Positions 5,370 through 11,479 of a stretch of 64,000 nucleotides of DNA are shown in pieces. Numbering within the stretch: the stretch's first letter is position 1; each line of letters starts with the position of its first letter. Source of the stretch: Xylographa opegraphella (taxonomy: Eukaryota); assembly GCA_022813865.1 (NCBI GenBank), contig JALDZX010000045.1, positions 62,001 to 126,000 of the forward strand, read 5' to 3'. The position numbers were made by a program, and so were the translations under genes. The notes below the pieces were generated by a model. That model made no database searches, was not told the DNA's origin, and saw only the letters and a list, made by a program, of their open reading frames with translations.

Positions 5370-7882
5370 TCACATCATCATCAAGCGTGTGGTTCTCCGT
5401 TCGGGGTGTCGCCGTCCAGGTCCCAAAAGTGATGTCACTTGTGAAGCACTCAAGGCGTGCTGTTCGCAGAAAATCTTGCTGTTGAGCTCAAAGTAGTCAT
5501 TGCGCAAGATCTTGTGGCATTCCTATCGCGGGAAGTCAGCAATAGTGTCAACAATTCCTCACTGGATATATTACCTGGCAAGTAAAGCAATGAGGATGGA
5601 ACTTCTGCTTCACTTCCGTTTCCAGATATTGCCCTTCGATACCTCGGTCGCATGTCTTGCACAAGGAGCCGTTGAGCTCGTGATAGTGGCGAGCGCAATA
5701 AGGATTGTTTTCGATAACATAGAAATCTGTCGTTTGGAAAGGCTCTTTACATGTTTGACACACAAAACATTGTTTGTGATATCGCCCAGTCAGTCTACCA
5801 TCTGCCGAGCTTACCGATTTGCCTTGAATGACCTCCCCACAACCCCGACAGTTCCCCTTGTTGGCTGTGCCTGGTCTCCGAATTGGCGACGCTGCGCCTT
5901 GTTCGCGAAGGAAAGGAGGCACAGGGGCTTGCATTTCTAGGGGTTGTGGGGGAAGCTTAGCAAGGATTGGGTCCGCTGCCCGCATGCGTGGCGAGCTTGG
6001 AGTTGTCATGAGATGTTGTAAAGGATGAACCGGAAATATCTCCTTTTTTGCTTCGAGCTTGACAGTAGTAGTACTGTTTTGTGATTGAGACGAGTGCGAC
6101 CTTTCACTGATGACTGGCCTCGACGGAGGGTACTGATTATCAGGAGGCGGAAGAGGAGTGAATCGACTGCTTTGCACGGCAGGATCCATGGGAGATTCTG
6201 GTGGCGTCGTCTCTGATCCGGGAGGAGGAATCTGAAGCACGGGCCTCGCATATGTCGGTCTGCTAAAGCTCTTTGTAGGGCGCCGTTGAGTCAGTGGCAA
6301 CTCACGCTCAGAGGTATTGATCACAGCTATTGGTTGAGCGTCTTTTAGTATACTTTCAACATTAGTGATATCGTCCAGGAATTTCGACCCCGATAGATGT
6401 GACGCCTCAGATAAAGGAGGGCTTGACCTAGAGCTTCCACTGTGAATGTCTGAGCGAGCGGAACCATTGGACGATATGGACTCTGTTGGCGTATGGTAAG
6501 GGTTGCCAATATCAAAGTCCTCAGCGCGGGTAGGTGCTGGAATTAGAGGAGCGCTATGGAGCCTCGTATCAGTCCGCTCCTCGAGGCTACCAGTTCTCCG
6601 CGGTGCCTCTAATCCCGTTTCGACCTTTGCAGGAACTGTACTCTGGGATGGGGTAGTGCGATGCGACCTGTAGGTACTGGTGCTCCCAATCTCGTACAGT
6701 GGTCGATTCGCAGCCGCAACACTTGCTTGCCTTTGGTGGTTGATTGCGGCGGTATCGGCAATGATTTTCGATGCCAATTCGATAGATCCTGAGCCACTGT
6801 GGTGATTCTGCATCTGGAGTGACAAGGATTCCGACTTATTCCCTTGACGGGAGTGTTCCAGCGGAGGTATTTTTGTTACGAGTTCCGGTACTGGGGGCGG
6901 ATTCATCATTTTATTCGTTCCAGAAAGCCGAGGCGGAAGTGGTTCGGATGACATCAGTGGCCCATGAGACTTGGCTCTGGATAGAGAACTGCGTGGTCCA
7001 CTAGATGTGGTCGAAAAAGAGGCTTTTTTCACATGATCCGATCCTGATGTCGAAGGTCGCTGGAATTCGGTCTTCATGTATCCTGCGCTTGGCGGTTGTG
7101 CCGCTTCTTCTACACTCCTTCTAGTGGTGTGCTGGTTGAAACTCGAATGCGAAGTAACAGCTGTACTTCCGTTAATGTTAAAGGGTCCAGGTGTGATTGT
7201 ATTCATCCTTTGTAGGAAACCCCCAACGTTGTTTCTAGCGCTCATAGGTGCCACTATCCCGTTACCATCAGCCGTTGATCGATGAGCTACAGCTTCAAAT
7301 GATTGCTTCGATGCTGACGGCGTTGTTGGTGTGGCGTTTCGTGACCTTGTGGTTGGAAATACGGGAAAAGCGCAATCTTGAGGTAATGGAAGCTCTGGCG
7401 ATGGGGCTCTGTATGGCAGAGGTGCTGTTGCGCTTCTGGGCGGCATGCGATAAGGCGATTTGCGGCCGCTACCCCCAGCGATCGGAGTGACACTGCGCGT
7501 ATTGCTCGACATGTTGGACCTGGGTGGAGCTGGAGAATAAGGACGATCTTCATTTTGTCAGCATATCCCAAAGTATATAGTGTTGCTATCAGTTCATACT
7601 TGCAACTGAAGCGTCGATTCGTGGTGGAGGCATTCGAGCTGACCTCGATTGGTTAGGCCCATTGAACATGGGAGCATTCATGGATGCAAAGGCATTATTG
7701 AATTTGTCAAATCCCCGAGGGGGAGCTGTTCAGTATATTAGCATGCTTTGCCCCAGTCGACCTTCGGTGGACGTACGCTGGCCGCAAATATGGTCTGCCA
7801 TCATGGAAATCTCCACATCGCGGTTGCAGTTGGAGCATTTGATTGTTGGCAAGAAGCCGGACGTCGTCCCTGGAACTGCCAT
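5370..7882 (-). CDS. LIM-domain protein, paxillin-like (Pxl1-type), 4 exons
   Basis: Exon 1 reads MAVPGTTSGFLPTIKCSNCNRDVEISMMADHIC, followed by a long Pro/Ser-rich region. The C-terminal LIM motifs are CRGC..YHKQCFVCQTC..YCARH and CKTC..FHPHCFTCQ|ECH..FCEQH, ending ERRTTRLMMM*. Introns at about 7776-7726, 7599-7550 and 5577-5523 keep the frame. Confidence 0.9.
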
Positions 7883-9478
7883 TGCCTCCACGAGGTTGTT
7901 ACGCTCCTCCCAGCGCCCGGTTCGAACGATTCAGATTCAACGGGCAATTTCATGAAAGCGTCGTCTTGGGTAACGAAATATTTCTTCTGGTATTTTGGTA
8001 GCTCGGTCGACAGAGCTTATGCAGGTGTAAGGTTCTCATACAGTGTGGACCTTAAAGACCAAGGCGGCGCGTTGTCAGCGGGAATTTCTTTGAGGATGTT
8101 CAGTCAGATGCTGCACAGAAGCTCTGCTAAAACAGCCTGGCGCCTACTCCGGGGCCAGTGGTGTCAACTGCATGGCGAATGGCTGGACGTGGGAAATTAG
8201 GTTAGGGCACGTGCCACGGACCGCACTTTGTAGACGCCCAGAACAGCCAGACAATTTGTTTTGTTCGACAGCGCCAGTCCACGATGGAGGATGATGGGGA
8301 TAAGATTTACTTTGTGATAGGATTCGGACAGACTGTCAACTAAAGTACATAAGGTAGTAGGTATGTTGGCCTATGTCCCAACTACGAAGCTGGCCTCAAT
8401 AATACGGAGTAATGATAATGCACCTCGCGGGTGCCTCCAGGCGAAGCTGCAGGAGCCGACCAAGCTTGGTTAGCTCCTGAAACGGCGCATGAGCCGTGGC
8501 CAGAATCGGTTTCGAAGGAGACGCCAAGACAGCACAAAGATAATGTCTGCATGAGTTTCATTGTTACTTTATGAAAGGCAATTGTCGCATCCGATCATTC
8601 CCATATCCGGTTGCTGTTGAGCTCCGATAATAATGAATATAATAAAGTTCATTCAAGACGATAATGAGCACGCTGGAAATGATATTGACGACGGCGAACA
8701 AATGACAACCACGATAAGCTTGTTGGTACATTTGGCCAATCGGGCGTTAGCAGCGGTCCAGGCCTAGAGATCCACCGCCCCTGATCAACGCCGGCAACTC
8801 TCGATCGAGCGAACTCAGGGGTGGGGGGAAGGGGTTGAAGAAAAGAGAAGACGAAGAAGACAGAAGAAAGAAGAGTCGCAATAATTCCGTTGGACTTCAA
8901 AAGTCAAAGTCGAGCATCGGAGTTTCGTGGGTGCATATCGCTGAGATGGAAGCACGTAATACTCGCCACTGACTTCACTTCATCTCTTATCGCGAGGTGC
9001 AAGCCCTGGCACGAAGAGTATCAATGGCAGGATATCCGGAAGATCAAAGACTTCGGAGATTAGCCTGGAAAGGTGAACGAAAGCGCTGTTTAGAAATAAC
9101 GATCTAAAAGATACGGATATATGTCAGTTGTGAGTTGATGGGAATCATCAAACATATCATGTGATCCACAACCTGTCCAGTCTCAATGTATCTGCTCTGT
9201 AACTACTTTATCTACCTACTATAAATACTTCGACATAGAGTTCACGATGTCCTCCGCCAGTAGTGGGGTTAATGCACCCGATCAATCACCGAGTGTTCCG
9301 CTAGGCAAGGAAGACAATTAGCTTCCAACAGAGACTGCCGTTCTTAGTGGGGGTTTGCCTACCTTCTCAACGGTCAACGAAACTTTTACACTCGTCGTCA
9401 TACATCACCATCCCTTCACGACCATTCTCTCTACCAAGAGGCATCGGCTCGAATCACTCGTATAAGCCCAAACAAGAT

Positions 9479-9717
9479 ACGGGAGACCGCGCCAGTGAAG
9501 CGTGGTCCGCACATCAGTCACCACGTTTTCCAATCTACTCAACTCGTAAGTACCGCCCGCTCCTCAACTCGGTCCTTCTGTAAAGTCTTCATCGTGAGAT
9601 TCCCTTCAAGTGTCTGTCTAAATCATCATGGCAGAACGCACCATCCATATAACGGAGGTAGACGCTCTGCTAGAGGTGGTGCGGGAGATATACCGCTCGT
9701 CAAATAAGGGCAAATAA
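9479..9717 (+). promoter_or_regulatory. Candidate spliced non-AUG uORF in the INO1 leader
   Basis: ACG at 9479, intron 9546-9634 (GTAAGT..CTAAA..CAG), optional in-frame intron 9658-9708, TAA at 9715-9717, which is 36 nt before the INO1 ATG. Confidence 0.6.
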
Positions 9718-9753
9718 TTCGTTTCGCTAAACTCCAACTAATCGAATTGCACC

Positions 9754-11479
9754 ATGGCACCGCATGCTGAAGGTACCAATGGCTACACAAATGGAACAGG
9801 ATCAAGTCGAGTCGAATCGACAGCCAAGGACTTGTTCACTGTCAACTCTCCTGATGTTCAATACACAGAGAACGAGATTTTGAGCAAGTACACCTATCGT
9901 ACCACCTCTGTTTCCAAAGATGGCGAAGGCAAGTATGTGGCTACTCCTAAGGAGACCATTTACGATTTCAAAGTTGAACGGAAGGTTGGGAGAGTCGGGA
10001 TGATGCTTGTGGGATGGGGTGGAAACAATGGATCCACGGTGACTGCGGGTATTATTGCCAACCGTCGTGGACTGGTGTGGGATACCCGAGAGGGAAAGCG
10101 TGCGGCCAATTACTACGGCTCTGTGGTCATGAGCTCGACCATCAAGCTCGGTACAGAAGCAGAGACTGGCAAAGAAATCAACATCCCGTTCCATGATGTT
10201 CTGCCAATGGTTCATCCGAATGACCTTGTCATTGGTGGATGGGATATCAGCGGGATGAATCTGGCCGATGCTATGGACCGAGCAGCTGTCTTGGAGCCTA
10301 CGCTCAAGAGCCTTGTGAAGAAGGAAATGGCCGAGATGAAGCCATTGCCCAGTATTTACTACCCTGACTTCATTGCCGCTAACCAGGAGGATCGCGCCGA
10401 CAATCTGTTGGAGGGTTCAAAAGCATGCCTGGCTCATGTTGACCGTATTCGCAAGGACATCCGGTATACAAACGTTCTCCAATTTCTAAACATACGCGAG
10501 GTATGCTGACAGTCGTTCAGTGATTTCAAAGCTGCCCATGATCTAGACAAAGTTATAGTGCAGTGGACCGCCAACACCGAGCGATATGCGGATATCATTG
10601 ATGGCGTCAACGATACCGCAGATAATCTGCTAAAATCTATCGAAGCAGGCCATGACGAAGTGGCACCTTCAACCGTCTTCGCCGTGGCCTGTATCATGGA
10701 GAACGCTCCATTCATTAATGGTTCTCCACAGAACACGTTCGTGCCGGGAGCCATTGAACTCGCTGAGAAATACGGCTCTTTCATTGGTGGCGACGACTTC
10801 AAATCCGGCCAGACCAAGATGAAGTCCGCCCTCGTAGACTTTATGATCAGCGCTGGGATCAAGCTCACGTCAATTGCCAGCTACAATCACTTGGGCAACA
10901 ACGACGGGATGAACCTGAGCTCCCAGAGACAATTCCGTTCCAAGGAGATCTCCAAGTCAAACGTCGTTGATGATATGGTCGAGGCGAACACTGTGCTTTA
11001 CAAGCCTGGCGAACATCCAGATCATACCGTGGTAATCAAGTACATGCCAGCTGTGGGTGACAACAAACGTGCCCTGGATGAATACTACGCCGAGATCTTC
11101 ATGGGAGGGCATCAAACCATCAGCTTGTTTAACGTATGCGAAGACTCGTTGCTTGCGTCTCCGCTAATCATTGATCTGGTACTTGTTGCCGAGATGATGA
11201 CTCGTATTTCATGGCGGGCCAATAGCGGCGATAGCGCATCCGGGAAAGAGTACAAAGGATTCCACAGCGTTCTCAGTATCCTCAGCTACATGCTAAAGGT
11301 AGCTTGAGCCCTCCCGAACATGAATGACCGAGCTAATTGTATAGGCGCCATTGACTCCTCCCGGCACTCCAGTTATCAATGCCCTGGCTAAGCAGCGTGG
11401 CGCTCTGACCAATATTTTCCGTGCTTGTGTTGGTCTTCAGCCAGAATCTGACATGACTCTAGAGCATAAGCTCTTCTGA
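9754..11479 (+). CDS. INO1: myo-inositol-1-phosphate synthase, 3 exons
   Basis: Signature motifs [39 protein letters not shown] and [14 protein letters not shown], with C-terminus LEHKLF*. Introns at about 10464-10520 and 11299-11344. Confidence 0.98.

Follow-up and report, generated by a model that had tools for sequence, protein, structure and literature searches.

The question raised by the locus described here is whether the leader of a fungal biosynthetic gene encodes a peptide of its own and, if so, from which codon and in which frame it is read. The locus lies in a 64,000-nucleotide (nt) stretch of a Xylographa opegraphella contig (JALDZX010000045.1, positions 62,001 to 126,000), which is called the window; positions below are those of the window, on its forward strand unless stated. 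The gene is INO1, encoding myo-inositol-1-phosphate synthase, and its coding region occupies 9754..11479, with the ATG at 9754 and the stop codon TGA at 11477-11479. The initial annotation of the sequence placed a spliced, ACG-initiated upstream open reading frame (uORF) immediately before INO1. Comparison of orthologous leaders confirms that such a uORF exists, that its peptide is conserved and that an intron interrupts it, while the start codon, the frame, the peptide and the stop proposed for it have to be replaced and a second intron has to be abandoned. That a genuine, selected coding uORF lies in the frame of the ACG at 9523-9525 is, on this comparative evidence, as good as certain.

The identity of INO1 is supported by Pfam, with two matches to PF07994 (NAD_binding_5, E-values of 7.3e-63 and 1.7e-53) and one to PF01658 (Inos-1-P_synth, 2.4e-36). 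To collect orthologous leaders, the translated exon 1 of INO1 was used to scan metagenome contigs. Of 390 matching stretches, 270 proved to be relatives, and the comparison uses the best 80 of these. At these 80 metagenomic loci, INO1 exon 1 is 69-83% identical to that of the window, and the first 230 INO1 residues are 65-100% identical between pairs of loci, with a median of 74%. A script search for the uORF covered 81 sources, namely the 80 loci and the window. The complete uORF was recovered by the script from 71 of the 81 and, with one more locus recognized by eye (L064, whose intron of about 467 nt lies beyond the limit of the script), it is present in 72 of the 75 leaders with enough upstream sequence. 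The remaining informative leaders are two that are partial at a contig edge and one in which the uORF is lost. Among the ten script misses, six loci (L026, L027, L029, L049, L060, and L079) offer 0-150 nt of upstream sequence. The contig of L080 begins within exon 1 of the uORF and holds exon 2, and L020 has exon 2, with no exon 1 within 445 nt upstream. The last miss, L067, keeps a degenerate relic only, with ACA where ACG is expected and the part encoding HHP missing.

L067 deserves a separate remark. Its INO1-like gene has a divergent N-terminus (MVAYAEN..), the relic lies about 90 nt upstream of L067:2501, and the INO1 tree (FastTree, midpoint-rooted, support values not inspected) places the locus among those bearing the uORF. 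It may represent either a loss of the uORF or a paralogue.

In almost all leaders the first exon of the uORF follows the motif ACG-TT(T/C)/TAT-TCN-AAY-YTN-CTN-AAY-TC, with a GT donor directly after it. The second exon is recognized by an AG followed by N-xxx-CAY-CAY-CCN-T(T/A)Y, 56-319 nt past the donor. When the exons are joined they form a single frame, (start)-F/Y-S-N-L-L-N-S + x-H-H-P-F/Y-N/A-G-x-R-x-S-...-G-G-A-S-D-S-P-x-T-R/K-stop. In the window, exon 1 (9523..9545, 23 nt) reads ACG TTT TCC AAT CTA CTC AAC TC, which corresponds to (T/M)FSNLLN and two bases of a Ser codon; exon 2 (9635..9707) provides the last base of this codon, then THHPYNGGRRSARGGAGDIPLVK, and then the TAA at 9705-9707. 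After splicing, the uORF of the window consists of 31 codons and a stop, and its peptide is (T/M)FSNLLNS + THHPYNGGRRSARGGAGDIPLVK. The peptide of the initial annotation, GDRASEAW...QRTIHITEGK, was read off by one base and was carried on to a stop at 9717. A spacer of 46 nt without ATG (9708..9753) separates the true stop from the INO1 start codon. A second copy of the exon 1 or exon 2 motif was found nowhere in the 406,724 nt made up by the window and the loci.

The spliced uORFs represent 50 distinct nucleotide sequences and 43 distinct peptides. Their length is nearly constant (32 codons in 27 of the distinct sequences, 31 in 22, and 28 in one), and all 50 end in a stop codon, which is TAA in 41, TAG in 7, and TGA in 2. 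The uORF is located wholly inside the 5′ leader and terminates before the main start codon, with a spacer of 34-74 nt at most loci and of 164-202 nt at a few. FSNLLNS is near-invariant, and the changes in exon 1 fall mostly at third codon positions.

Conservation of open frames does not settle which frame is used. ATG-started uORFs with similar peptides occur upstream of INO1 in all three frames across different loci, which indicates that the DNA is conserved but does not, on its own, tell the frame that is read. The answer is given by the pattern of substitutions. The ratio of the proportions of nonsynonymous (pN) and synonymous (pS) differences, pooled over all pairs of the 50 distinct spliced uORFs, is 0.39 in the conserved frame, against 1.36 and 1.45 when the sequences are read in the +1 and +2 frames, respectively; the codon alignment was built from the peptide alignment in the conserved frame, so that a slight bias toward that frame is possible, and it contains very few gaps. 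Exon 2 taken alone gives 0.48 in the conserved frame against 1.35 and 1.38 in the others. Summed entropy over the same 50 sequences amounts to 22.9, 18.6, and 42.6 at codon positions 1, 2, and 3, respectively. As a control, the first 230 INO1 codons of 49 of the same loci (L047, which has stops within the first 690 nt, was left out) give a pS of 0.70, a pN of 0.17, and a ratio of 0.25. The uORF peptide is under purifying selection, and this selection is frame-specific.

These values bear directly on the possibility that the conserved segment acts as RNA or DNA without being translated (for instance as a structured leader, a splicing enhancer or a promoter site) and that its open frame is incidental. 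Conservation at the nucleotide level, the occurrence of open frames in all three registers in different species, and the adjacent, true RNA hairpin described below would all suit such an element. Nevertheless, entropy at third positions is about twice that at positions 1 and 2, and the pS of the uORF (0.65) is near that of INO1 (0.70); silent sites of the uORF drift nearly like those of the enzyme gene, which speaks against a constraint at the RNA level as the cause of the conservation. An untranslated element would also leave unexplained the rule that pairs start codon and context (see below) and the presence of a stop in every distinct sequence, and the interval 9200-9800 has no Rfam match at E-values up to 1. 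This explanation is therefore regarded as very improbable.

The +1 frame is the one followed past the intron by the initial annotation, which had proposed a dN/dS below 1 as a check of its frame. That reading begins at the ACG at 9479, proceeds through GDRASEAW...PRFPIYST + QRTIHITE and an optional intron at 9658-9708 to the TAA ending at 9717, and includes an AUG-started isoform from the ATG at 9628. All of its letters are present: ACG at 9479-9481, GTAAGT at 9546-9551, CAG ending at 9634, ATG at 9628-9630, GT at 9658, AAG ending at 9708, and TAA at 9715-9717, which is 36 nt before the INO1 ATG. In addition, ATG-started open frames of this register are found in a number of orthologues. Its pN/pS, however, is the 1.36 reported above, and a MAFFT alignment of 52 leaders shows the region upstream of the hairpin, with the surroundings of 9479, to be unconserved. 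The alignment across INO1 orthologues that had been proposed as a check does reveal a conserved near-cognate start and a conserved intron position, but this start is the ACG at 9523. The GT of the supposed 51-nt second intron consists of positions 2-3 of a variable codon, which is GGT in 3 of 50 sequences, and its removal would delete most of the conserved peptide. As for the ATG at 9628, it opens a plain 29-codon frame to the TAA at 9715-9717 and lies in the first intron. Among the orthologues, the intronic ATGs whose frames continue into exon 2 are distributed over the conserved frame, the frame of the initial annotation and the third frame as 17, 20, and 12 of 50, so that the seeming conservation of the +1 register is spill-over from the adjacent coding frame. 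An AUG-started isoform produced by intron retention was rejected on the same ground, as intronic ATGs occur in all frames without preference. Only a negligible chance is left to this frame as a whole.

The start of the uORF follows a strict rule. Its first codon is ACG in 43 of the 50 distinct sequences, ATG in 6, CTG in 1, and never anything else. In 55 distinct leaders, the base at −3 is A before every ACG (44/44) and before the single CTG, whereas it is T before every ATG (10/10); the base at +4 is T in all 55. ATG-start forms fall into three separate clades on the INO1 tree. An in-frame stop is located within 30 nt upstream of the start in 12 of the 55 leaders and stands directly before the ATG in five of the ATG leaders; the window has one 27 nt ahead of the ACG at 9523. 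Such nearby stops imply that initiation must take place close to the ACG, ATG or CTG codon. In the window the initiation context is provided by a 15-nt linker (9508..9522) with A at −3 (position 9520) and C at −4, and the linker consensus ..CCG(Y/G)CAA(G/A/C) is conserved among the leaders. The combination of a weak codon with the best context, or of the best codon with a weak context, points to selection for an intermediate rate of initiation.

The same design is sensitive to the stringency of initiation, and it would also be expected if the uORF were translated and acted in cis without any sensing of inositol. In this case it might be a constitutive damper, a means of coupling INO1 to nonsense-mediated decay (NMD), or a sensor of start stringency and eIF2 status (eIF1/eIF5 balance, stress), and INO1 output would track the state of the translation machinery instead of the product of the pathway. 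The variation of the C-terminal residues agrees with this explanation. A link to NMD finds some support in a distant fungus, Cryptococcus neoformans, where, according to excerpts of PMC12934609, INO1 mRNA is higher in the NMD mutant upf1, in which other inositol genes are up-regulated as well. On the other hand, a device of this kind needs no specific peptide, yet the peptide and the first part of the enzyme show about the same degree of conservation, and the uORF keeps to a length of 31-32 codons. A uORF that merely damps or gauges initiation is thus considered rather unlikely.

The uORF is interrupted in the window by a spliceosomal intron of 89 nt (9546..9634), which runs from GTAAGT through a branch-like CTAAA to CAG and contains the ATG at 9628. 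This intron had been called from the window sequence, and it is now borne out by its conserved position, by orthologues that lack it, and by the distribution of ATGs. GT..AG introns of 56-319 nt occupy the same codon position in 68 leaders. All 50 distinct introns begin with GT (GTAAGT in 18, GTCAGT in 9, and others) and lie between the second and third bases of the same Ser codon. Three loci (L059, L071, and L078) are intronless, and there FSNLLNS (FANHLNS in L071) runs on into the HHP part in the conserved frame. They occupy three separate places on the INO1 tree, a distribution which indicates that the intron has been lost three times and that the uORF was retained each time. A stop codon inside the 5′ splice site was also considered as a conserved feature and was rejected: only 34 of the 50 distinct introns have it, and the GTAAGT consensus accounts for it.

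In 59 distinct leaders, no ATG is found in 5,701 nt of uORF exons (start codon excluded), one is found in 2,748 nt of sequence preceding the uORF (45 nt per leader), and four in 4,089 nt of spacers, all of them abutting the main ATG directly and belonging to one group. Within 6,433 nt of introns, in contrast, there are 131 ATGs, and at least one occurs in 48 of 56 introns. The density of these ATGs is 2.04 per 100 nt versus 1.31 expected, and base composition predicts 1.1-1.3 per 100 nt overall. The mature leader is thus kept free of AUG, whereas the intron is not; owing to the excess of ATGs in the introns, an unspliced leader would carry a heavy AUG load.

Upstream of the start codon, most leaders contain an inverted repeat of 7-9 base pairs (bp). 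In the window this hairpin lies at 9485..9507, with the 5′ arm GACCGCGC at 9485-9492, a loop at 9493-9499, and the 3′ arm GCGTGGTC at 9500-9507, and it ends 15 nt before the ACG at 9523. Examples from other leaders are GATCGCAC..GTGCGATC, GGATCAC..GTGATCC, and GACCAAGG..CCTTGGTC. The helix was placed by hand on the MAFFT alignment of 52 leaders and its pairs were then counted. Pairing is seen in 87.3% of 322 cells, against 23-49% when the partner column is slid by 1-3 columns, and all eight pairs have changed on both sides. The covariation score was reached by 0 of 500 shuffles, a count that is not a probability because the sequences are related, so that the slid-partner controls are the fairer comparison. 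RNAalifold predicted no structure on the same alignment, since variable loop lengths scatter the 3′ arm. The cells include 36 G-U against 8 A-C combinations. This excess of G-U implies that pairing acts on the sense strand, in the INO1 transcript, and hence that transcription starts upstream of the hairpin.

The position of the hairpin is related to the type of start codon. A stem of at least 6 bp that terminates 13-16 nt before the start is present in 33 of 41 ACG/CTG leaders, and none of the 10 ATG leaders has one at this distance, a stem lying at 8 nt in four of them and being missing in six; these counts lack phylogenetic independence. A distance of 13-16 nt is approximately the length of mRNA from the peptidyl (P) site to the exit of the small ribosomal subunit. 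The association with non-AUG codons and the spacing suggest that the hairpin aids start-site selection.

Two observations concern the leader at large. The long spacers of 164-202 nt belong to L031, L048, L050, L056, L057, and L059, and four of these loci (L031, L048, L056, and L057) also have ATG-start forms and a hairpin only 8 nt upstream; this lineage may rely on reinitiation rather than on leaky scanning. In the window, the ATGs at 9248 and 9272 are the final ones 5′ of the leader, and the next ATG is the intronic one at 9628. A transcription start downstream of about 9275 and ahead of the hairpin at 9485 would be consistent with the distribution of ATGs.

The AUG-free spliced leader and the fixed distance between hairpin and start are also relevant to the idea that the product of the uORF is set free as a micropeptide that acts independently, for example by binding to the synthase or to a lipid-regulatory factor, and that the uORF adjoins INO1 for co-expression only. 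Selection spanning the whole peptide, the N-terminal FSNLLNS included, would be well explained in this way, and no known family matches the peptide, as Pfam returned nothing for three intronless versions at E-values up to 10. However, a deliberately weak start is a poor means of producing a peptide, and both the leader free of AUG and the fixed spacing indicate a control of scanning. A free micropeptide is accordingly judged quite improbable.

The explanation preferred here is that of a conserved, spliced, cis-regulatory peptide uORF, of the type known from plant GGP or from AZIN1, that modulates the translation of INO1. As a whole it is moderately favored on the basis of sequence comparison, and its central component, an action of the uORF in cis on INO1 translation, is probable. 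In such a mechanism, scanning ribosomes would first meet the hairpin of 7-9 bp and then, 13-16 nt on, the ACG in its optimal context. A minority would initiate there, and the majority would leak on through the AUG-free leader to the INO1 AUG. Initiation at the ACG would yield a peptide of 31-32 residues, which would just fill the exit tunnel at termination. On a cellular signal, for which inositol or one of its derivatives is the most plausible candidate, the nascent peptide would then slow either elongation or termination. A stalled ribosome would block or queue later scanning ribosomes, so that the ACG would be used more and INO1 would be translated less. The role of the hairpin can only be guessed at; it may help to retain the scanning complex at the weak start codon.

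By analogy with the plant and fungal uORFs discussed below, the obvious candidate for the signal is the end product of the pathway. That the uORF responds to inositol status, as the initial annotation also proposed, is possible, with chances clearly short of even. A still more specific form of the preferred mechanism can be put forward tentatively. An undescribed arrest peptide of filamentous ascomycetes (FSNLLNS..HHPF.G.R.S..GGASDSP) might sense inositol or a derivative, the resulting queue might place a fourth scanning ribosome on the ACG, and the hairpin might re-form at the mRNA exit of this ribosome and lock it in place. The length from the start to the last codon equals three times 30-31 nt, which would fit three queued ribosomes and a fourth on the ACG, although this is arithmetic and not evidence. 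It is known that a hairpin located downstream of a near-cognate codon boosts initiation at it. If the proposal were true, it would define a new cis device for raising near-cognate initiation, a mirror of this downstream-hairpin effect, and it would explain the feedback of inositol on INO1 in fungi that lack the Ino2/Ino4/Opi1 circuit of yeast.

Several points weigh against the preferred explanation. The relic at L067 indicates that the element is dispensable at least in that locus. The 80 loci are mutually related, and counts taken over them are not independent events. The final three residues are the least conserved part of the peptide, and variable C-terminal residues are unusual in peptides that stall at termination. 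The fold of the window taken alone (−15.8 kcal/mol, z of −1.3 versus shuffles) is unexceptional; support for the hairpin is comparative, not energetic. Lastly, inositol as the effector rests solely on the identity of the downstream gene.

The arrangement has known analogues. One is the uORF of the plant gene for GDP-L-galactose phosphorylase (GGP/VTC2), which starts at an ACG and for which a product-dependent ribosome stall has been proposed (PMC11066809, in excerpt). Like the INO1 uORF, it begins at ACG, encodes a conserved peptide and precedes the coding region for the committed enzyme of a small-molecule pathway, a likeness by description. Kingdom, pathway and peptide differ, and the fungal uORF has 31-32 codons. 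Neither an internal intron nor an upstream hairpin at fixed spacing is mentioned for the GGP uORF in the excerpts of PMC11066809, whereas the INO1 uORF has both. Among fungi, the arg-2/CPA1 arginine attenuator peptide belongs to a conserved uORF on which ribosomes stall under the influence of the pathway product, with the effect that a biosynthetic enzyme is translated less (excerpts of PMC5640933). The INO1 uORF resembles it as a fungal conserved-peptide uORF in front of a biosynthetic-enzyme gene. It differs in that its start is near-cognate, a hairpin lies upstream of it, it is spliced, and its three intronless versions gave no Pfam match. The arginine attenuator uORF starts with AUG and is unspliced.

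Another relative is the upstream conserved coding region of AZIN1 and ODC. It has a conserved near-cognate start in a good context, or in some lineages an AUG in a poor one, and it encodes a conserved peptide. Pausing that depends on polyamines makes scanning ribosomes queue over the weak start, and the pause motif is at the C-terminal end. The pairing of start-codon type with context is shared with the INO1 uORF. Unlike the AZIN1/ODC element, the INO1 peptide has no counterpart of this C-terminal pause motif and is conserved best in its N-terminal and central parts, with the last three residues varying; the hairpin and the intron are extra features. In Saccharomyces cerevisiae the same enzyme is regulated, but its control is transcriptional, by Ino2/Ino4/Opi1, and the uORF known in yeast is on the regulator INO2, unlike a uORF on INO1 itself. 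From sequence, the INO1 uORF is filed in the known class of conserved-peptide uORFs with near-cognate starts, in which a hairpin and an intron are unusual.

A uORF on the INO1 leader is unreported in the titles and abstracts of the literature on INO1 control that was searched. A full-text literature search returned no description of a uORF of filamentous-fungal INO1, although subscription journals or supplements may hold one, and it neither confirmed nor excluded the published filamentous-fungal INO1 uORF to which the initial annotation refers. In the portions of the papers available, PMC5487733 deals with cpc-1 only and the word "inositol" is absent from it, PMC5640933 does not mention INO1, and PMC11550727 does not mention inositol; neither these three nor PMC12934609 mention a uORF on the INO1 leader of a filamentous fungus.

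To our knowledge, eukaryotic uORF peptides that couple a metabolite to translation amount to a handful (arginine, polyamines, ascorbate, sucrose, and few more). The INO1 uORF brings together deep conservation, the committed enzyme of inositol synthesis and three separable features, namely the near-cognate start, the hairpin, and the intron. Model filamentous fungi offer reporter and cell-free systems in which each of them is open to direct mutation, which makes the regulation of inositol synthesis testable in this respect. The locus is also a natural case for the study of start-site choice at non-AUG codons. With regard to annotation, the INO1 leader holds an intron of the 5′ untranslated region and a coding uORF that standard gene callers overlook.

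Some minor observations complete the description of the locus. INO1 contains two coding introns, 10464-10520 and 11299-11344, with borders called by eye from the sequence. Within the former, positions 10472-10483 match the consensus start of the uORF over 12 nt (ACG and nine further bases); this echo is absent from that place in all 80 loci and is probably due to chance. Upstream of the INO1 leader, TATAAATA occupies positions 9220-9227. Farther upstream, on the minus strand at 5548-7512 and divergent to INO1, an open reading frame of 654 amino acids is found, whose C-terminus shows repeated Cys/His spacing of the LIM-like type.

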